Of a stretch of 64,000 nucleotides of DNA, positions 12,168 through 30,325 are shown one piece after another; position 1 is the stretch's first letter; every line of letters begins with the position of its first letter. A model generated the notes under the pieces. That model worked only from the letters and a program-made list of their open reading frames with translations. It was not told where the DNA came from and searched no databases. Source of the stretch: Candidatus Magasanikiibacteriota bacterium (GTDB lineage: Bacteria > Patescibacteriota > Patescibacteriia > Magasanikbacterales > GWA2-37-8); contig JACOYB010000004.1 in NCBI GenBank assembly GCA_016182085.1, forward strand, positions 75,976-139,975, in the 5' to 3' direction. The position numbers and the translations under genes were made by a program.

Positions 12168-12422
12168 TTGCTTAAAACGGAGCACGTACTCTTGGAAGAT
12201 CTTGAAATTGAAACCTGGGTTCCTGATATCCTTAGCGAGGTACAGTGTCCCAATCCAAATTGCGGCGGGCGGGCGGAAGAAGTGGCCGAGAATATTATCT
12301 GGTGCGCCAAGTGCCAGAAGCACTACCCGCCCCCACCCTCAATTGCGGTTGGTTTGAAAGAGCTGATGGCGATCACTCAAGCTCAGGACTGCAGCCGAAT
12401 TCCGCCGCAACTGGCTGAATGA
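12168..12422 (+). CDS. small zinc-ribbon protein (CxxC...CxxC), hypothetical
   Basis: 84 aa with CPNPNC and CAKC pairs downstream of a consensus promoter. Sits in a GC-richer accessory block. Confidence 0.45.
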   Translation: MLKTEHVLLEDLEIETWVPDILSEVQCPNPNCGGRAEEVAENIIWCAKCQKHYPPPPSIAVGLKELMAITQAQDCSRIPPQLAE

Positions 12423-12513
12423 AGCCCGGGCAATCCGCGAAAGAAGTTTTTTCGCCGTCGTCCTAGCTTTATAAAAATAACTTTTGTTTTTATAAAACTG
12501 GCGGCGAATTTCT

Positions 12514-19899: not shown

Positions 19900-21561
19900 A
19901 TGTTGCAAATTATTTTTTCCTTTCTGGCGGGCGCGCTTACCATTGGCGCGCCCTGCATTCTGCCGATGCTTCCAATTATCTTGGGCGCATCGGTGGGTCA
20001 TACTAGCAAAACCAGACCGCTGTTTATTACCCTTGGTTTTGTTGCTACATTTTCGGTGGCGGGGCTTACGCTATCCCTTATTGTGCAAAAACTCATGATC
20101 GCGCCCGATTTGCTGCGAAATATCGCAGTGGCCGGCCTTGCCATTTTTGGCTTGCTCATGTTATTTCCTAGAATTTTTGAAGTGTTGGCGCAGCGATTAT
20201 CCGGGCTTTCTACCCAAGCCCAACAAATCAGTCAAAAAGCAGGCAGTAAAAATTTTGGCGGTTTTGTTTTGGGCGCGATCCTTGGTCTTATATGGACACC
20301 TTGCGCCGGGCCAATTTTGGGCAGTATTCTTACGCTTATCGCGACCCAGTCAAATTTTGGCCAAGCGGCAGTTTTGCTTGTAGCGTATTCGGCTGGAGCG
20401 GGCGTGCCAATGATTGCGATTTCTTACGGCGGACAAGCCGTCACTACCAAAGTCCGTTCCATCGCAAAATATACAAACACAATTCAAAAATTATTTGGCG
20501 GTATAATTTTATTGCTGGCGGCGGCTATGTATTTTCAATATGATTTAAAATTACAGGCAAAAATTTTGGAATACTACAGTTTTCCCGCTTTAGAAGAAAA
20601 ACTTATTCGGCCAAGGTTGAATAATTTACCGGCATCTAATGTGAAAACAAACAGCAGTACAACCACAACCGACCTCCCCAATTACGGACAAGCTCCTGAT
20701 TTTAAAAACATAATCTCTTGGATTAACACCGACAAAAATTTAACCATGAATGACCTGAAGGGCAAAGTGGTGCTCGTTGATTTTTGGACATATTCCTGCA
20801 TCAATTGTATTCGCACATTGCCCTATGTAACATCTTGGTATGAAAAATATAAAGACCAAGGTTTTGTGGTTATAGGGGTGCATACGCCGGAATTTGAATT
20901 TGAAAAAGTGCTAGATAATGTAAAAACCGCGACAAAAAGATATGGCATTAATTATCCAGTAGTATTAGATAATAATTTTGGTACTTGGAATAATTATAAT
21001 AATCATTATTGGCCAGCCCACTATCTTATTGATCGCGATGGAAATATTCGTTATTACCATTTTGGCGAAGGCAAGTACGAAGAAACAGAAAGCAACATTG
21101 CCAGCCTGCTGGGTATGAAAGCTGCGGTCGCGCCACGCACGGAAGAGCCGGCCAAAAATATACGCACTCCGGAAATTTATTTTGGCACGGATAGATTGGA
21201 ATACCTGACAAATTCTCAATCTCCTTCTGCATCAGGTAAGCAATTTTCTTTGCCAACGCAACATGAAGAAAATCATTTTGCTTTACAAGGAATGTGGAAA
21301 TTTGATAAAGAATATGTAGAATTAGCCGAAGGAGCCGGGATAATTAAAATGAAATTTTTTGCCGGCAAGATTCATATGGTGGCAGAAGCAAGCAAACCGA
21401 TAATCGTACAGATTACGGTAGATGGTAAAAAACAAAAACCGGTTACTATTTCTGTGTCCGACTTATATACGCTTTTTGATTCAAACAATTATGCTTCCCA
21501 TGAAATTATCATAGAAATTCCGGAAGCCGGGCTGGAAGTATATACATTCACCTTTGGATAA
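19900..21561 (+). CDS. CcdA/DsbD-type membrane thiol-disulfide transporter fused to TlpA-like thioredoxin and a C-terminal domain (DipZ-like)
   Basis: N-terminal polytopic region with conserved Cys pairs (GAPCILPML, WTPCAGPILG), FWTYSCINCIRTLP thioredoxin motif and a ~130-aa C-terminal beta-rich domain. Confidence 0.78.
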   Translation: MLQIIFSFLAGALTIGAPCILPMLPIILGASVGHTSKTRPLFITLGFVATFSVAGLTLSLIVQKLMIAPDLLRNIAVAGLAIFGLLMLFPRIFEVLAQRLSGLSTQAQQISQKAGSKNFGGFVLGAILGLIWTPCAGPILGSILTLIATQSNFGQAAVLLVAYSAGAGVPMIAISYGGQAVTTKVRSIAKYTNTIQKLFGGIILLLAAAMYFQYDLKLQAKILEYYSFPALEEKLIRPRLNNLPASNVKTNSSTTTTDLPNYGQAPDFKNIISWINTDKNLTMNDLKGKVVLVDFWTYSCINCIRTLPYVTSWYEKYKDQGFVVIGVHTPEFEFEKVLDNVKTATKRYGINYPVVLDNNFGTWNNYNNHYWPAHYLIDRDGNIRYYHFGEGKYEETESNIASLLGMKAAVAPRTEEPAKNIRTPEIYFGTDRLEYLTNSQSPSASGKQFSLPTQHEENHFALQGMWKFDKEYVELAEGAGIIKMKFFAGKIHMVAEASKPIIVQITVDGKKQKPVTISVSDLYTLFDSNNYASHEIIIEIPEAGLEVYTFTFG

Positions 21562-21760
21562 GCACATGATTAAAAATAAAATTAAAAATTTGCGAGAAAA
21601 TAAAGGCATAACCCAAGAGGATTTTGCGGGCGCGCTTAAAGTTTCCCGCCAAACCGTGATTGCGATGGAAAAAGGAAACTACGAGCCGTCGCTGGGCCTG
21701 GCTTTAAAAGTAGCCAAGTTTTTTGATATGCCGGTAGAAAAAATTTTTATCATTAATTAG
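21554..21760 (+). CDS. XRE-family HTH transcriptional regulator (YozG-like, 68 aa)
   Basis: LRENKGITQEDFAGALKVSRQTVIAMEKGNYEPSLGLALKVAKFF, a cro/C1-type HTH. Confidence 0.8.
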   Translation: MDKHMIKNKIKNLRENKGITQEDFAGALKVSRQTVIAMEKGNYEPSLGLALKVAKFFDMPVEKIFIIN

Positions 21761-21776
21761 TTTAACCGCACGTTAT

Positions 21777-22148
21777 ATGCCGCGTCTAAAAATTTTGGTT
21801 TATTATATAATCCTATTTGTCCTCATTGCCCTGATTGCGGCCTATCTATTTTTTAAGCCTATGGATGAAATGTCTATGCCCGCCATGATTTCCATATCCA
21901 TGGTTTTGGTTTTGTACTCAGTGTTGATATCGCTGGCCGGGGAGATAAAAAGCGAGGACGAGCGAGAGGTTTTGCATCGCAATCTTTCCAATAGAGTGGC
22001 AACCATTGCCGCCACGATATTTATTTCCGGCGGATTAATTTATCAGATTTTTGTTACGCATCATATAGATTGGTGGCTGCTAGCGGCGATAATTATAATT
22101 AACCTCACAAAAATTACTAGTCTTATTTATTTTCATTATAAAAAATAA
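21777..22148 (+). CDS. small membrane protein partner of the XRE regulator (DUF2975-like architecture)
   Basis: 123 aa with 3-4 TM helices, immediately downstream of the 68-aa HTH gene. This pairing is common in Firmicutes. Confidence 0.5.
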   Translation: MPRLKILVYYIILFVLIALIAAYLFFKPMDEMSMPAMISISMVLVLYSVLISLAGEIKSEDEREVLHRNLSNRVATIAATIFISGGLIYQIFVTHHIDWWLLAAIIIINLTKITSLIYFHYKK

Positions 22149-22171
22149 CTATCAAGTATTCTTTAAAATAA

Positions 22172-22199
22172 AAATAAAGCATGTACTGCTTTATTTTTT
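22172..22199 (+). terminator. rho-independent terminator
   Basis: aaataaagcatgtactgctttatttttt. Confidence 0.6.
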
Positions 22200-22232
22200 G
22201 GCTCCGAACATTGAACGAAATCCACGTTAGTG
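22200..22232. repeat. degenerate copy of the 3' half of tRNA-Asn (putative island att remnant)
   Basis: ggctccgaacattgaacgaaatccacgttagtg shares gaaatccacgtta (13/13), gctcc and gaac blocks with the tRNA 3' end at 24982-25021, in the same orientation. Confidence 0.4.
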
Positions 22233-22333
22233 ATTATTACAATACTATACAATTAGAATTTACGATAGTTTATGGTTTGGGTAGGGATGGGCATTCTCAG
22301 CCTAATTAGATATTGTTTTTATTCAGTCTGAAT

Positions 22334-24919
22334 TTAAAAAGACTTCATTCCGTTCAAATCTAAATATACCCCAAACGGTGTTGCCTTCCAATAAGACATA
22401 TTTATACCATAAGTTAGTAGTATTTGAGTTACAGTATTAGAGCTTATGCCCTTAATTGGGAGGAAGTAGCTAGCGGGTATCTTTACTTTGTGAGTCATTG
22501 CATTATTATTTTCATTCTTATATTCTTCTTTATAGTCTGCCTCTATATTTTTAAATATACTTTCCAAGTTGATCCCTTTAAGACGATCAACATATTCCTT
22601 GGTTCGGATATTTGCCTCCACTGGATTAGTAATAGTTTGCACAGACGTAAGAATATCTCTATATAAATCTATAAAATCTTTTAAGTATTCTTTTTCCTTA
22701 ATTTGATGCCAGAATCTTGTATCTGGATCAGTAAACATAATTAAATTATACTCATCCAAAGCTTTTGCTAAAGTTTCCCACAAATTATCCTGTTTTTCTT
22801 TAGGCTTCTTAAGCTCTGATAATTTATATTCTTTCCAAAAATGTTTTATATCTGTATATACAAAAGAGCCAGTAATCTGTGCTAGGTAAAGTGCCATTTC
22901 AAGAGTGCCGCTCATTTGATAAACATGCATTTGACCCCCTTTTTCACCGATACCAATTGGTTGTAAGGATGCTAGTGGGTTGTCTAGTTTTTTCTTTTGT
23001 ATATATTTCAAGGCATCCTCAATCTCTTCTTCAGAAGCATTGGGTGATTTTTCTTTAAGTTTGTATTTTAAAATATCTGGTGGTAAGTTAAAGATCGAAC
23101 TTTTCATATCATCTCGCATCAATTTTTGTGCAAGATCTGTATCATTTTTATCTATACTACGATATTTCATTCTCGCTTCAGCCATTTTATAAGTACGTTT
23201 TTTTAAATCTAAATTAAAATCGCAGGGATCTGGGATCATTTCGACAATGCCAGAATCAATAAGAGGCATTAAGCCCAGTATTAAATTAACATTTTTAATC
23301 GTGTTCTCCATGTATTGATGAGGGTTTTCATAAGGGCTATATTTTTCGTTCATGGTCCTGGGATTTAAAAATGGCGAATACATAATTATCTTATCGACAT
23401 ACAGAGAATAACCCATTATTGTTAGTGGGGTTACTCTGGGGTCAAGTGAACCATGGTAAAGGGCTTTTAATTCATCTTTATTTGGCTTTGATAGCAATGC
23501 TGTTAGCTCGGTATCAGGATTCCAGAGATGCCCTATGACACGGTATAATTCCCGAATTTTATCATCAGTCAACTCTTTGCGAAAGTCATCCCAATTTATG
23601 CCTTTATCAAAACCAAATATTTTGTAGATCGCATTATTTAGAATCTCGTTTCTCTCTTTAATTGAGTATTTTCGTACTGGGTCATTCTCATTTTCTCTGC
23701 TTGTATGCCTACGACCAAACGCATCCTGATACCAAGCGAGGCCGCCATCTTTGCCGCCAACATAAATTTCACCTCCAAACTGGTATAATCCATCCTTTGG
23801 TGGTAGTAGTATTTTATATAAAGACCCCCACTCATTTTGAGAGTATGTTTTTTCTGGGTATAGCCATTCTAATTTCCCAGCAGCAATGTACTTTCGAGCA
23901 CGGTTTTTTATAATATAGTTAAACGCACGCACTTCTTCGGCTTTTAATTTCCTTTCTCGTATAACAGTATCCCACCTAGTTATAGTTTGAGAAAAGAATC
24001 GCGGGTTAGTTCTGCTGGAAACTGGATCTACTTCGTTTGGAGAGGTCGCATATTCAAGGTTTGTTAAAACAAGACAGTGGTTTAAATCTAATGGAAATAT
24101 TGTTTGAGATGCCTTCCACGCTGTTGAGGGATCGTTGGGGTATTTGCATGCCTCTGACTCAGGAGGGCAGGCGGGATTATATATTGTCACAGGATGGTCA
24201 GAGATAATAAATTTAATATCGGATTCTTCGGCAGAAACTATCTCCATCACTCCCTCTATCCACATAGTACAATGCATGGTTCTTAAAAATTGCATTTCTA
24301 GTAGCAGTTCATCTTTTGTAAGCTGAAAATAGTTAGAACGAATCCAATCAAGCCCCTTAATAGTCCGTAGCTTTTGGGCATCAATATATACAAATATATC
24401 TTGAAAATATTTATGTAAAATATTAGGATCATTTGCTACTAATCCATCTATGGCAGCAGAAATATTGTTATCCATCTTTCCAAATAAAAGAGTTTCTATA
24501 TCCTCATTTCTCATGCCAAAGAAATTTGTCGTATATAAATTTTTTTTATGAAAATAACTTCCAGGTCCCTTATTATATTTCTCTGTAAGTTTTACTCGTC
24601 TTCCATTCGGGAGATCCTTATAAGGCTTTAAATCAATACAGTGCAGCGTTTTTTGTCCAGGTAGAAGGAATCTTTTTTGGTATTTAATCGGAACATAATG
24701 ATTATTTTGTCTTTTTGGCTTTGATGCGTATAACATAAAGTCTCCGTTTTGATTTTTAGATGTATCGTTATAATTTAACCTCTGGATTGAATTACTCAAT
24801 ACAGAATACTCTTGAGGAGTAGAAGCTTCTCGAGTTTTATTAATGCAACATTTCTTATATTTTTTACCACTCCTACACGGACATGGCTTGTTTAAGTATT
24901 TTCCTTTCCCCATAAACAA
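22334..24919 (-). CDS. large SEC-C-motif plus DUF4238-like domain protein with ~430-aa uncharacterised C-terminal half
   Basis: N-terminal KPCPCRSGKKYKKCC (SEC-C metal-binding motif), then NHYVPIKYQKRF...IISDHPV characteristic of DUF4238. Very AT-rich. Immediately downstream of tRNA-Asn on the same strand. Confidence 0.7.
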   Translation of the reverse strand: MFMGKGKYLNKPCPCRSGKKYKKCCINKTREASTPQEYSVLSNSIQRLNYNDTSKNQNGDFMLYASKPKRQNNHYVPIKYQKRFLLPGQKTLHCIDLKPYKDLPNGRRVKLTEKYNKGPGSYFHKKNLYTTNFFGMRNEDIETLLFGKMDNNISAAIDGLVANDPNILHKYFQDIFVYIDAQKLRTIKGLDWIRSNYFQLTKDELLLEMQFLRTMHCTMWIEGVMEIVSAEESDIKFIISDHPVTIYNPACPPESEACKYPNDPSTAWKASQTIFPLDLNHCLVLTNLEYATSPNEVDPVSSRTNPRFFSQTITRWDTVIRERKLKAEEVRAFNYIIKNRARKYIAAGKLEWLYPEKTYSQNEWGSLYKILLPPKDGLYQFGGEIYVGGKDGGLAWYQDAFGRRHTSRENENDPVRKYSIKERNEILNNAIYKIFGFDKGINWDDFRKELTDDKIRELYRVIGHLWNPDTELTALLSKPNKDELKALYHGSLDPRVTPLTIMGYSLYVDKIIMYSPFLNPRTMNEKYSPYENPHQYMENTIKNVNLILGLMPLIDSGIVEMIPDPCDFNLDLKKRTYKMAEARMKYRSIDKNDTDLAQKLMRDDMKSSIFNLPPDILKYKLKEKSPNASEEEIEDALKYIQKKKLDNPLASLQPIGIGEKGGQMHVYQMSGTLEMALYLAQITGSFVYTDIKHFWKEYKLSELKKPKEKQDNLWETLAKALDEYNLIMFTDPDTRFWHQIKEKEYLKDFIDLYRDILTSVQTITNPVEANIRTKEYVDRLKGINLESIFKNIEADYKEEYKNENNNAMTHKVKIPASYFLPIKGISSNTVTQILLTYGINMSYWKATPFGVYLDLNGMKSF

Positions 24920-24983
24920 AATAAACGAGTATTACCTCGTTTGAATCAAGACCCAAACGGGTCGCTCTCACGTATTTAATTTG

Positions 24984-25055
24984 CTCCCAGGCTTGGACTC
25001 GAACCAAGGAAATCCACGTTAACAGCGTGGCGTTGTACCGCTCAACTACCTGGGA
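24984..25055 (-). tRNA. tRNA-Asn (anticodon GUU)
   Basis: Minus-strand cloverleaf. Acceptor UCCCAGG/CCUGGGA, D-arm GUUG..CAAC, anticodon stem CCACG/CGUGG with loop CUGUUAA, T-arm CUUGG-UUCGAGU-CCAAG, discriminator G. CCA not encoded. Confidence 0.85.
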
Positions 25056-25068
25056 ATAGAACTTGAAA

Positions 25069-25087
25069 GCCCGCTTGTGGCGGGCGT
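25069..25087. repeat. solo hairpin of the repeat family (cccgcttgtggcggg), just 5' of tRNA-Asn
   Basis: Identical hairpin core to 11265-11287. Followed by a second hairpin gtagtttctatataaaactac. Confidence 0.5.
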
Positions 25088-25280
25088 AGTTTCTATATAA
25101 AACTACACCTGCGTTAGGCGTTATTATTATTTAAGTTGTTATTTAGGCTTTTCATATGTGGTGCGTATCATAAATCTTTTAACCCGTCTTGTCAATGAAA
25201 TATTACTAGGATAGTATTTAGAGCATCAATGTAACATGTTGGCGACTCAGGTATTATCCTTATATATAACTAATTAGTTT

Positions 25281-25805
25281 ATGGAAGTCAGTGAAGAGCT
25301 GAGGCTGGTAGCTCGCGCCAAGACCGGAGACCGGGATGCTTTGGGCTTGCTTTGGGATGACCTGACTCCAAAATTATATGGCTATTTGCTTAATCAGTTA
25401 CGTCAAAAAGATCTGGCCGAAGATATAACCCAGGAAACCTGGCTCAAGGCTATAAACCATTTAGATAAGTTTAAGGACAGAGGAGTTCGTTTTAGCGCAT
25501 GGGTGTTTGCGATTGCCCGCAATGAGTGCCGGCAACATTGGCGAGGAGGAAATAAAGAAATACCGGTAGATTGGACTGAAGAGGGGGCTGATAGTAATTT
25601 ACAATCCACCCACAGCGACGATTATCTAATGATTGAATCTGTTTTTATTCATTTATCAAATGAGGAACAGGAAATTTTACGGCTCCGCTATTTGGCCGAA
25701 TTATCCTTTAAAGAAATTGCCGGTATTTTGGAAATTTCCATGATTGCGGCGCGGGTACGCTTGCATAGAGCTTTGTCACGCGCTCGCAACCATATACAAA
25801 AATAA
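25281..25805 (+). CDS. ECF-type RNA polymerase sigma factor
   Basis: Sigma-70 region 2 (DITQETWLKAINHLDKF) and region 4 (LSFKEIAGILEISMIAARVRLHRALSRAR). Confidence 0.85.
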   Translation: MEVSEELRLVARAKTGDRDALGLLWDDLTPKLYGYLLNQLRQKDLAEDITQETWLKAINHLDKFKDRGVRFSAWVFAIARNECRQHWRGGNKEIPVDWTEEGADSNLQSTHSDDYLMIESVFIHLSNEEQEILRLRYLAELSFKEIAGILEISMIAARVRLHRALSRARNHIQK

Positions 25806-25806
25806 T

Positions 25807-27048
25807 ATGTTTTTTACAAATCCGTTAGACAATAAATTGCGAAAGTGGGGCAAAGCAAAACAAGAATTGCCCGCGAGTGTTTCGGCGATGAAAGAAAAAG
25901 TTCTGGCATCTGTAAAGCCAAAGGCAGAACCCTTGCCAAAAACAAAAAACCGCACGCCTTATTGGTTTGTGTTGTCAGGAGCTTTGGCAGCCTTGGTTTT
26001 GTTTATTGGGCAGTATACTTTAAGGCAGATAAATACGCCCGTCGCAGATAGTGGTTTTGGTATCGCCTCTCAAGAACAAATGGCTTTAAGCAGTAAATAT
26101 GAAGAGGAAAATTTGGCATCAGACATGGTTACGCCGAATGTAACCCCGAGCGATTTGGGTATTCAATATGGTGAGGCAACCGGTCTGGGGGGCAGATCGT
26201 ATGAAGATAGTATGGTTGAGAAAGTTTCCAACTTTATTTCTACAGGCCAAGATAGAAACGGCGCTATCTCCGATGCTCGTGAATTTTTAAAGTATGATTA
26301 CAGCGCCACCATTAAAACCAGAAAAGTTGAGCAAATAAGTTCGCGCGTGCAAACGATTGTGCGCGGGCATGGCGGCAGGGTAGACAATATGTATGTGCAG
26401 GAAAAACACGGATATGTTTACTTTGTGGTTCCGAAAAGTTCGCTGGAGGCATTTAAAAATGAGATCAAAGGTTTGGTAAATGTCCGTTTTTACACCGAAT
26501 CAGTTCGCGCTCAAAATTTATTGCCGGAAAAAGTCATAATAGAAAAATCAACCGAAACCGCCAAAGAATCGTTAGCTTCTTTGGAAGGCGAGCTAGCCAT
26601 TCTTACCAAAGAGCACAATACAAGAATTTCCGATCTGCAAAAACAGCTAAACGGAGTAGTGGCAAGTATAAACCGTTTGCGTAACGAGGTAACAACGAGC
26701 ACCGTGCGCCAAGAGGAGATAAAACGAGATATATCACGGCTTTCTGCTGTCCAGCAAAAGCTGCAAAGACAAATTACCGATGAAAATCAAAATTATAATT
26801 CTCAAAAATTTTATTTGGACGACAGAATAAAAAATGCCAAATCTGAAATTTCCAATTTGGCCGAGCAAGATCAAAATCTGCAAGATAACGTGGAGACTGT
26901 CCAAGGGTCGGTAGAAGTAGAATGGGTAAGTATATTTGAAATTATTAAATTATACGTTCCGTATTATTGGGCTTGGGTCCTATCTTTTTGCGCCATTGCG
27001 CTCGCGGTTAATTATTTTAGCAAACGCAGAACTATAGAAGCGCTTTAA
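25807..27048 (+). CDS. putative anti-sigma factor / DUF4349-like membrane protein with extended coiled coil
   Basis: Starts 1 nt after the sigma gene stop. One TM helix after ~65 aa, a long coiled-coil region and a C-terminal TM helix. The ORF-track N-terminal extension overlaps the sigma gene and was trimmed. Confidence 0.5.
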   Translation: MFFTNPLDNKLRKWGKAKQELPASVSAMKEKVLASVKPKAEPLPKTKNRTPYWFVLSGALAALVLFIGQYTLRQINTPVADSGFGIASQEQMALSSKYEEENLASDMVTPNVTPSDLGIQYGEATGLGGRSYEDSMVEKVSNFISTGQDRNGAISDAREFLKYDYSATIKTRKVEQISSRVQTIVRGHGGRVDNMYVQEKHGYVYFVVPKSSLEAFKNEIKGLVNVRFYTESVRAQNLLPEKVIIEKSTETAKESLASLEGELAILTKEHNTRISDLQKQLNGVVASINRLRNEVTTSTVRQEEIKRDISRLSAVQQKLQRQITDENQNYNSQKFYLDDRIKNAKSEISNLAEQDQNLQDNVETVQGSVEVEWVSIFEIIKLYVPYYWAWVLSFCAIALAVNYFSKRRTIEAL

Positions 27049-29300: not shown

Positions 29301-29342
29301 GCCTCGACCCATGCTTCACAGCATTGGTCGAGGCTTGTACAA

Positions 29343-30023
29343 CTACCTCTGGCCCTTGGGGTCCCGTCCGTCAGGTGCGGCCTTGCGGCGCGCCTTGGCC
29401 CTGTCCTTCTTGAACTTTTTCCAGTCCTTGGCACCCGTGCTGGTGCTGGTCGTGGTCTGCTGCGGCGAGTTCTCCTCGTACCACTTCGCGTCCTGGCAGG
29501 CATCAGCCATGCAGTACTTGAAGTAGTTGGGAATCATCGCCTTGCAGTCCGGACCAGCGCACTGGTGGCCACAGTCAGAGCAGTAGAGCCCACCGTCCGC
29601 CGGAATCTCGACACTGCACCCCTTGCAGGGCTTGGTGGCGAATTCCGAACAGTTCGGGCAGTAGGTGTGCCACACCGGAATGGTCCGGCCGCATCCACCC
29701 CAGCAGGAATGAACGCAGTCGTCGCACAGCCCGGAGCGGTGGCCCAGTGGCAGCCGGTTGGTGCACTGCGCGCCGGTATCCGGGTGCTCCCGGTTGCGAC
29801 ACTGCTTGGTGGCCGGAGCCATGATCTTCGGCGGCGGAACCACGGGGGGTTCCACCACGGTCGGCTTCATCTGCTTGAGCTGTACCTCCTGGGACAGCGG
29901 GTTGGTGTCGGTCGTCTCCGGGGCGTTGGCCTCGGAGGTGGTGACGGACATCTGGTTGTTGATGGCGCCGGTGAGGATCTGGCCGAGGATGTTGACCAGG
30001 GAATCGGTGAGACGAGCGAACAT
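29343..30023 (-). CDS. cysteine-rich multi-zinc-ribbon protein in GC-rich island
   Basis: 226 aa from MFARL. AAGGAG SD 6 nt upstream. About eight CxxC/CxxxxC pairs (CDDCVHSCWGGCGR, CPNCSEF, CKGCSVE, CSDCGHQCAGPDCK). The plus-strand 350-aa ORF is a GC-rich shadow. Confidence 0.5.
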   Translation of the reverse strand: MFARLTDSLVNILGQILTGAINNQMSVTTSEANAPETTDTNPLSQEVQLKQMKPTVVEPPVVPPPKIMAPATKQCRNREHPDTGAQCTNRLPLGHRSGLCDDCVHSCWGGCGRTIPVWHTYCPNCSEFATKPCKGCSVEIPADGGLYCSDCGHQCAGPDCKAMIPNYFKYCMADACQDAKWYEENSPQQTTTSTSTGAKDWKKFKKDRAKARRKAAPDGRDPKGQR

Positions 30024-30325
30024 GGCATTCTCCTTGTTGAACTCGATGTTCTTCGTAGAAGCGCGCGGGTTGGACCGCACACTTCTTGGAGAGATGGCAC
30101 GCTGTTCATCTCAGCAGGTTGTCATGTGCGGCGTAAAGACAAATTTCATTGGGATAGTCGCATAGATCACCTCGTGGTTAAGTTGTACAGAACGCGGAAA
30201 CCCCGCCTATATATGGCAGTTATTCCGACAGAAAGAAGTTTAAATCCTTTCTCTTGGAACAACAAGAGAGACTAAACAATGTATCATAAAACTCTGGCTT
30301 TGTCAACCGTATATGCTCGCACAAA

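Follow-up and report, generated by a model that had tools for sequence, protein, structure and literature searches.

The window examined here, a 64-kb stretch (64,000 nt) of contig JACOYB010000004.1 from a Candidatus Magasanikiibacteriota bacterium, contains a 2,750-bp islet bounded on one side by a tRNA-Asn gene and on the other by a degenerate copy of the 3' half of that tRNA. The islet carries one gene, which encodes an 859-amino-acid protein with a DUF4238 domain. This gene is very probably accessory cargo that was acquired horizontally at a tRNA-linked variable site. Our overall reading, which we hold to be somewhat probable, is that a single-gene islet was acquired horizontally at tRNA-Asn and that its protein acts alone against phage. 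The protein appears to be a long-form variant of a single-gene defense candidate in an unusual host; a defense role for it is plausible, and the case for calling the gene a defense gene is evenly poised.

A single-gene islet beside tRNA-Asn

The islet and its boundaries are defined by three features, all on the minus strand.

24983..25055, minus strand: tRNA-Asn gene (anticodon GTT), called by ARAGORN as the sole tRNA in the window; proximal islet boundary
22334..24913, minus strand: gene for the 859-amino-acid long-form DUF4238 protein, stop codon included
22200..22230, minus strand: degenerate 31-nt copy of the tRNA-Asn 3' half, running from the anticodon loop to the acceptor end; distal islet boundary

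Between the tRNA gene and the fragment lies one real open reading frame (ORF), which reaches a TTG at 24919 and counts 861 amino acids from there (22334-24919). Translation probably begins at the ATG at 24913, which yields 859 amino acids and a product identical to an independently called protein (P0001/L190). The tRNA, the fragment, and the gene thus all exist as an earlier reading of the sequence alone had described them (here, the original prediction), but the fragment occupies 22200-22230, the spacer from tRNA to ATG measures 69 nt, and the protein has 859 residues. Rfam (RF00005, 65.2 bits) places the tRNA at 24984-25055. The remaining islet ORFs in the list made for the window encode at most 83 amino acids and lie on the opposite strand. 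Neither among the islet ORFs nor among the flanking genes (thioredoxin/DsbD-like, helix-turn-helix [HTH] protein, 123-amino-acid protein of unknown function, extracytoplasmic function [ECF] sigma factor, DUF4349 protein, and ProRS) did we find an integrase- or recombinase-like gene; the original prediction, too, had seen no integrase. The segment had also been described as AT-rich, and its GC content of 0.344 is indeed the lowest of the window: 553 equal-sized segments of the 64 kb averaged 0.429 ± 0.022, and 0/553 were as low. At third codon positions, the GC content (GC3) of the 859-amino-acid gene is 0.293, against 0.39 to 0.43 in neighboring genes. The islet is a compositionally foreign, integrase-less, single-gene segment at the 3' flank of tRNA-Asn. 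An assembly artifact is excluded because independent Logan assemblies span both junctions; over 20879-25028 and 24915-26667, two Logan contigs assembled from other sequencing runs match the window at 100% identity.

Comparison with related loci revealed that this segment is variable. The DsbD-like protein of the flank (19900-21561) shares 88% identity with its counterpart in Candidatus Magasanikbacteria RIFOXYD1_FULL_40_23 (locus L002), 77 to 82% with those in four more Patescibacteria-type loci (L003 to L006), and 64% with that in L007. These identities point to a Magasanikbacteria-like bacterium of the candidate phyla radiation (CPR) as the host. They overrule a Bacteroidota origin, which the archaeal-type ProRS and the GC content had suggested. 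All six loci share the gene block trx-dsbD-orf68(HTH)-orf123 in conserved order. The L002 copy of orf123 stops at 12248, and a tRNA-Asn gene follows in the same orientation at 12403-12475; it matches the window tRNA-Asn at 72/73 positions. The distance from orf123 to the tRNA is therefore ~155 bp in L002 and 2,835 bp in the window. Since L002 has the same flanks with only ~155 bp between them, the two tRNA flanks genuinely differ in the presence or absence of the 2.7-kb segment. The search of relatives for an empty tRNA-Asn site, which the original prediction had proposed, thus found one, and the idea of foreign cargo at a tRNA-linked variable site is borne out both by composition and by absence from L002. 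No DUF4238 homolog was found in the 21-kb locus of any of the six relatives.

The distal boundary was claimed to be a partial direct repeat of the tRNA, and the statistics uphold this. On the minus strand, from 22230 to 22200, the fragment reads CTAACGTGGATTTCGTTCAATGTTCGGAGCC. Its first part, TAACGTGGATTTC, matches the tRNA exactly (13/13) from the anticodon loop to the variable region; an internal deletion follows in the T-arm. The 13-mer has only two occurrences in the 64 kb, one inside the tRNA and one at 22217-22229, each on the minus strand; chance predicts 0.06 matches, and 0/100 shuffles contained two. When the tRNA 3' half was aligned locally with gaps, the fragment scored 29, and the maximum over a background of 2,306 windows of 110 nt was 24. 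A chance match is excluded. In layout, the islet thus matches a tRNA-integrated island: the tRNA forms one boundary, and a copy of its 3' part in the same orientation forms the opposite one.

The 859-residue protein and its family

Three parts were recognized in the protein.

24845..24892, minus strand: SEC-C zinc-knuckle motif (Pfam PF02810), residues 8 to 23, CPCRSGKKYKKCC
23699..24712, minus strand: DUF4238 domain (Pfam PF14022), approximately residues 68 to 405, with motifs HYVPIKYQKRF and ISDHPV
22337..23692, minus strand: C-terminal alpha/beta domain (C-domain), residues 408 to 859, without a Pfam family or a solved structural relative

Both named domains, which had been assigned from the sequence by eye, pass their Pfam cut-offs: SEC-C with 27 bits (cut-off, 20.4; E value, 4e-6) and DUF4238 with 54.7 bits (gathering cut-off, 27; E value, 1.4e-14). 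Residues ~408 to 859 have no Pfam match, and a Foldseek search of the PDB gave nothing at an E value of ≤0.001 for either half of the protein; the C-terminal half is as unassignable as it had first seemed. A family-profile search of PDB sequences returned only SEC-C peptides of SecA and YchJ, and NCBIfam gave only subthreshold SEC-C matches. PADLOC matches to the E2 and PDC-S12 models covered the SEC-C motif alone and were set aside as uninformative.

An AlphaFold model built with 55 homologs had a mean predicted local distance difference test score (pLDDT) of 81.7 and a predicted template modeling score (pTM) of 0.80. It shows a mixed alpha+beta fold for the DUF4238 domain and, after the SEC-C motif, a disordered linker (residues 26 to 67; pLDDT, <50). 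Modeled alone, the C-domain reached a pLDDT of 91.3 and a pTM of 0.91. Residues invariant in the DUF4238 domain among the 55 homologs include H72, Q79, E140, D148, R183, K186, E206, E224, and D239; such a set of H, D, E, R, K, and Q residues suggests an enzyme. Conserved residues of the C-domain in the alignment include D491, D507, D562, D602, E672, and D688.

A search of 5.8 billion proteins returned 1,781 matches to the 859-amino-acid protein. The best hundred are full-length relatives (≥90% query coverage, 38 to 75% identity), and relatives come from Patescibacteria, Smithellaceae, Gammaproteobacteria, and Omnitrophota-like and other metagenome-assembled genomes (MAGs). Cultured Aeromonas, Klebsiella, Vibrio, Sinorhizobium, and other bacteria carry members on plasmids, listed in RefSeq as "DUF4238 domain-containing protein," and long-form relatives from plasmids and prophages score 43 to 56 bits against PF14022. 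Because many phyla together hold hundreds to thousands of full-length relatives, a one-off fusion is ruled out. Judged by these matches, the three-part architecture is an established and widespread family, catalogued merely as "DUF4238 domain-containing." The suggestion of a new fusion architecture therefore fails; peculiar to the subgroup of the window protein is only the N-terminal position of its SEC-C motif. Among the 114 of the top 120 long-form matches that are at least 700 amino acids long, SEC-C lies between DUF4238 and the C-domain in 69, is N-terminal in 27 (the subgroup of the window), and is absent from 18. At the internal site, the window protein has a short "NENDP" aligned to the consensus "NDPCxCGSG."

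The C-terminal half also occurs by itself. Searched alone against 1.84 billion cluster representatives, it matched 578 clusters, many of them stand-alone proteins of ~480 amino acids that consist of an N-terminal SEC-C motif and the C-domain and belong to no Pfam family. This stand-alone form accounts for at least 29 clusters at 50% identity (for example, P0146, P0152, P0153, P0161, P0170, and P0193; loci L097, L110, and L111). Judged from this distribution, the C-half is a self-contained evolutionary module. The stand-alone proteins end in a hydrophobic tail with the terminus "...VPMSVFxDL." A metagenome scan for their loci was swamped by generic SEC-C matches and yielded two true loci. In three loci, no separate DUF4238 gene was found beside the stand-alone gene. 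In L110, the gene adjoins a 517-amino-acid ORF that is probably a large serine recombinase, judged by eye from its N-terminal sequence.

Defense and other possible roles

We tabulated the gene neighborhoods of about 12 independent homolog loci. No neighbor gene recurs, which argues for a single-gene unit. Several homologs lie on or near mobile elements: one in a prophage-like region with a serine recombinase, a ParB-methylase, and an S24 repressor; one on an element with Rep3, relaxase, and type IV coupling protein (T4CP) genes, together with toxin-antitoxin genes and a transposase; and one in a CPR integrative element with a serine recombinase, a primase zinc ribbon, and ImmA and HTH genes. 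A further homolog is near AbiEi/AbiEii, RadC, ImmA, and Multi_ubiq/ThiF genes, another adjoins a DpnII restriction-modification system and a NERD protein, and a Klebsiella islet holds one with DUF3258 and IS3. Relatives were also found on ten IMG/VR viral contigs, including a prophage with portal, major head protein, integrase, and Ant genes and a second copy adjoining terminase and portal genes. Fourteen plasmids carry relatives; on the conjugative Aeromonas plasmid pAsa4b (MOBH/MPF_F), the gene is beside traN. In four cases, the flanks are housekeeping or metabolic (recA/ftsK, metabolic genes, ssb/mla, and flagellar/ftsK genes). Copies with such flanks are solitary islets, and the copy in the window belongs to them. 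A general association of homologs with tRNA genes was not found. Two other kinds of neighbor were noted in L082 (12818-13357 and 14223-14795) and L084 (6348-7355): an SLOG/LDcluster4 gene lies immediately downstream of the Patescibacteria homolog in L082, and DUF218 genes are near the homolog in two unrelated loci; either kind could be coincidence.

One pointer to function comes from a relative. A single DUF4238 protein encoded in a P2-prophage hotspot of Escherichia coli confers strong resistance to T7 (Rousset et al. 2022, PMC9122126). That protein is WP_001515549 (309 amino acids), and its gene sits between the P2 replication endonuclease and portal genes. It matches PF14022 with an E value of 4e-39 and the PADLOC model "DUF4238-Pers" with an E value of 1.5e-219. 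We found no mechanistic work on DUF4238 in the literature. In DefenseFinder, the single-gene DUF4238 system goes under the name "Rst_DUF4238." Alignment of the long-form profile (A3) with 24 short-form relatives (A7) by hhalign gave 241 colinear columns and paired NHYVPxxYQKRF with HHHYLSQCYLKGF and FIISDHPV with FITTDNPV. Given their shared membership in PF14022, the window protein and WP_001515549 appear to be distantly homologous.

A patchy family carried on mobile elements, sometimes beside AbiE or restriction-modification genes, and with a validated DUF4238 relative supports the original assignment of a defense role, and the proposed tabulation of neighbors did turn up mobile elements, AbiE, and restriction-modification genes. 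Several results weigh against this reading. About half of the sampled contexts are ordinary housekeeping neighborhoods. The hhalign link to the E. coli protein is weak (probability, 12%; pairwise E value, 0.0024; 18% identity), and the phage-tested member of the family is that short protein only (PMC9122126). The window protein has no match to "DUF4238-Pers" (PDLC03000) at an E value of ≤1, so that nothing beyond its SEC-C motif is recognized by PADLOC, and it has none in PHROGs. PADLOC found 0 matches among 10 unannotated immediate neighbors of homologs, and tblastn found none in 50,697 GenBank phage records, whether queried with the DUF4238 domain or with the whole protein. As for acquisition, the difference from L002 may reflect a loss there rather than a gain in the window lineage.

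Several of these points also bear on a different, somewhat unlikely explanation, namely, that the protein works for its mobile carrier elements or in a process of the cell and that the DUF4238 family is functionally heterogeneous. Examples of such roles would be element maintenance, exclusion of competing elements, anti-defense, or, for a zinc-knuckle protein of SecA/YchJ type, a ribosome- or membrane-associated role; SEC-C motifs are known from SecA and YchJ. The remoteness of the validated protein, the lack of PADLOC or PHROGs matches for the protein and of PADLOC matches for its unannotated neighbors, and the several copies among recA/ftsK, ssb/mla, or flagellar genes with no mobile-element hallmark nearby all fit this explanation. 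However, the patchy cross-phylum spread at up to 67 to 75% identity and the foreign composition are typical of accessory genes, other copies occupy cargo positions of prophages and conjugative plasmids or adjoin AbiE or restriction-modification genes, and the sole family member ever tested is a defense protein.

Under the defense reading, we hypothesize that the 859-amino-acid protein, in the order SEC-C zinc knuckle, disordered linker, DUF4238 domain, and 450-amino-acid alpha/beta C-domain, would act alone in an anti-phage response of the abortive-infection type. The DUF4238 domain would provide the core defense activity. The SEC-C motif and C-domain would be an independently mobile module that adds targeting, regulation, or a second effector activity; the core of the C-domain may be Rossmann/HUP/PIN-like, with the acidic residues that are conserved in the alignment. 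More tentatively, long-form DUF4238 proteins may be a distinct, widespread family of single-protein anti-phage systems in which the mobile module was fused to DUF4238 to give a sensor-effector with two uncharacterized folds, and they may be among the few immune genes that CPR bacteria with their reduced genomes can draw on, through exchange at a tRNA-Asn hotspot. CPR bacteria are regarded as having few immune systems, and an acquired candidate defense gene at a reused tRNA-Asn site would illustrate how their small genomes might sample accessory functions. DUF4238 is a validated defense family, and its long form has in addition a zinc knuckle of variable position and a large domain that folds with confidence; domain dissection could therefore reveal how phage is sensed and acted upon. 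Defense inventories would undercount the long-form branch, because the PADLOC hidden Markov models miss it entirely. If the protein does not act in defense, the finding is that of a well-documented small genomic islet only.

History of the tRNA-Asn site and comparison with known systems

The relatives also bear on how the islet arose. Two features of the left host flank are needed to read their loci.

22165..22199, strand not assigned: AT-rich hairpin AAAGCA-gtaca-TGCTTT with A/T runs on both sides, seen in the sequence and in alignments with relatives
21777..22148, plus strand: orf123, conserved 123-amino-acid gene of unknown function, syntenic in L002 to L007

The hairpin falls below the rule of our terminator scan (at least 3 G-C pairs). 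It is likely a bidirectional terminator that serves orf123 and originally served the tRNA; its position and fold are kept in the relatives, with its sequence changed.

L002 has an empty site, yet an imperfect one, as a 75-nt spacer and an 18-nt repeat of the tRNA end remain there. This mini-insert beside the tRNA-Asn gene (12305-12402 of MFRA01000005.1) consists of the spacer, which has a terminator hairpin of its own, followed by the 18-nt perfect tRNA 3'-end repeat, AGTCCAAGCCTGGGAGCA. Such an arrangement suggests a scar, left at this tRNA either by a second, independent integration or by a deletion. L003 (~12310-12355) and L005 (~12338-12385) carry an orphan tRNA-Asn 3' half of 40 to 44 nt with the T-arm and acceptor strand intact, directly after the orf123 terminator (L005 copy, CTAACGTCGATTTCGCTGGTTCGATCCCAGCCCTCGGAGCA); within 21 kb, they have no DUF4238 gene, no tRNA-Asn, and no tRNA 5' half. 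The 5' boundary of the fragment in the anticodon loop, C[A/G]CTAACGT, is the same in the window, L003, and L005, and the fragment plus ~30 nt on its island side can be aligned between the window and L005/L003. The acceptor strand reads CCTCGGA in the L003 and L005 fragments and CCTGGGA in the living tRNA, and the window fragment (..TTCGGAGC) is of the older type. L004, L006, and L007 have no tRNA fragment. Gene order downstream of this spot varies from relative to relative, so the spot is a synteny breakpoint in the clade. L004 (JAGOQR010000001.1) and L006 (JAGOQR010000002.1) are two contigs of one Magasanikiibacteriota MAG, each with a trx-dsbD-orf68-orf123 block whose DsbD-like protein is 81% (L004) or 77% (L006) identical to that of the window; this double cluster is either a duplication or the product of a mixed bin.

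Because L003 and L005, which lack the gene, keep a better-preserved copy at the same spot, the tRNA fragment is older than the 859-amino-acid gene and is the scar of an earlier integration at a reused site. The difference between its acceptor strand and that of the living tRNA suggests that it is the displaced, older 3' end. The direct repeat was thus not created by the integration of the present cargo. The original prediction had read the fragment as the mark of this gene's own integration, which does not agree with the fuller copy in L003 and L005 or with the different, 18-nt copy in L002; relatives that keep a tRNA-like fragment without the gene were, moreover, what it had named as evidence against itself, and L003 and L005 are such relatives. 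We hypothesize instead that, before these lineages split, an ancient element integrated into tRNA-Asn with a crossover in the anticodon loop and would thereby have displaced the original tRNA 3' end next to its original terminator. Afterward, L002 would have acquired its second repeat, and L003 and L005 would have been rearranged at the site; the present cargo of the window would have come or been exchanged later and kept no integrase of its own.

It is unlikely that the gene was instead cargo of the ancient element that left the fragment, kept in the window lineage only, lost by deletion in L002, and removed by rearrangement in L003 and L005. Such a history would account for the alignable ~30 nt on the island side of the fragment, since part of the old element end survives there; the 75-nt spacer and 18-nt repeat of L002 resemble a deletion scar; and the loss of an integrase fits an old, decayed island. 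However, the GC3 of 0.293 is unadjusted to the host (0.39 to 0.43), though the time since the fragment arose has sufficed for flank proteins to diverge to ~80% identity, the gene is full-length and intact, and a homolog is absent from the loci of all six relatives. That the fragment is a decayed tandem tRNA-Asn duplicate or a chance match, and that illegitimate or homologous recombination, without a role for the tRNA, brought the segment in, is very improbable: the missing integrase, the many 14- to 17-nt imperfect repeats in the region (the tRNA repeat ranks only eighth), and the homologs elsewhere without a general tRNA association would agree with it, but the 13-mer and alignment statistics exclude chance, the same start in the anticodon loop in three lineages with a run to the acceptor end beside the downstream terminator is the geometry of a displaced 3' end, and the independent perfect repeat of L002 argues for recurrent site-specific events.

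Two further features concern expression of the gene.

25167..25195, minus strand: sigma-70-like promoter TTGACA-17-TATGAT (11/12), ~110 nt upstream of the tRNA
24923..24942, minus strand: terminator-like hairpin with a T-run, between the tRNA and the gene ATG

With the strong promoter-like site before the tRNA and the terminator-like hairpin before the ATG, read-through expression may be needed, and the promoter upstream of the tRNA may also drive the 859-amino-acid gene in this way. On the left flank, a small XRE-type HTH gene, orf68 (21554-21760, plus strand), precedes orf123 (21777-22148, plus strand), which has no Pfam family. Since the order trx-dsbD-orf68-orf123 is kept in all six relatives, these four genes may form one unit. 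The right flank, with an ECF sigma factor (25281-25805, plus strand) and an overlapping DUF4349 ORF (25744-27048, plus strand), shows no synteny with the six relatives; ~110 nt upstream of the tRNA are its only part conserved with L002. Directly downstream of ProRS, at 29340-30080 on the minus strand, a patch of ~0.7 to 0.8 kb has a GC content of 0.58 to 0.64 in a genome of ~0.42. Its minus-strand ORF encodes a Cys-rich protein of ~226 to 245 amino acids with many CxxC pairs (CDDCVHSC, CPNC, CKGC, and CSDC), and the patch resembles DNA that was acquired recently, in a separate event, from a donor of high GC content.

Among known systems, genomic islands that target tRNA genes are bounded by a duplicated tRNA 3' segment in an attL/attR architecture. 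The islet resembles them in having the tRNA at one end and a same-orientation 3' copy at the other and in its foreign interior composition, its accessory cargo, and its absence from the nearest relative. It differs from them in lacking an integrase, in measuring merely 2.75 kb, and in a degenerate repeat (13 exact bases, the rest matching with gaps) that predates the cargo. The SEC-C motif shares the CxC...C[CH] zinc-knuckle signature with the SecA C terminus and YchJ; however, it sits on a disordered N-terminal tether in a protein with no SecA or YchJ domain, and most long-form relatives bear it between DUF4238 and the C-domain.

Variable cargo hotspots with defense genes are also found in SXT/IncC elements. 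The P2 and P4 prophages hold defense genes in hotspots of this kind (PMC9122126). Long-form relatives beside terminase and portal genes, near prophage integrases, or by traN occupy comparable positions, whereas the window copy is a naked single-gene islet outside any recognizable element. Compared with the E. coli DUF4238 system, the window protein has ~18% domain identity and escapes the PADLOC model, has 859 amino acids with SEC-C and a 450-amino-acid C-domain rather than 309 amino acids in a single domain, and belongs to a CPR bacterium rather than an enterobacterium. Nevertheless, both proteins pass the PF14022 gathering threshold, their motifs are colinear in the weak hhalign alignment, with HxxxP/S..Y.K.F near the N terminus and SD[HN]PV in the core, and both are encoded by single genes without a conserved partner that travel as cargo of prophages and other mobile elements.

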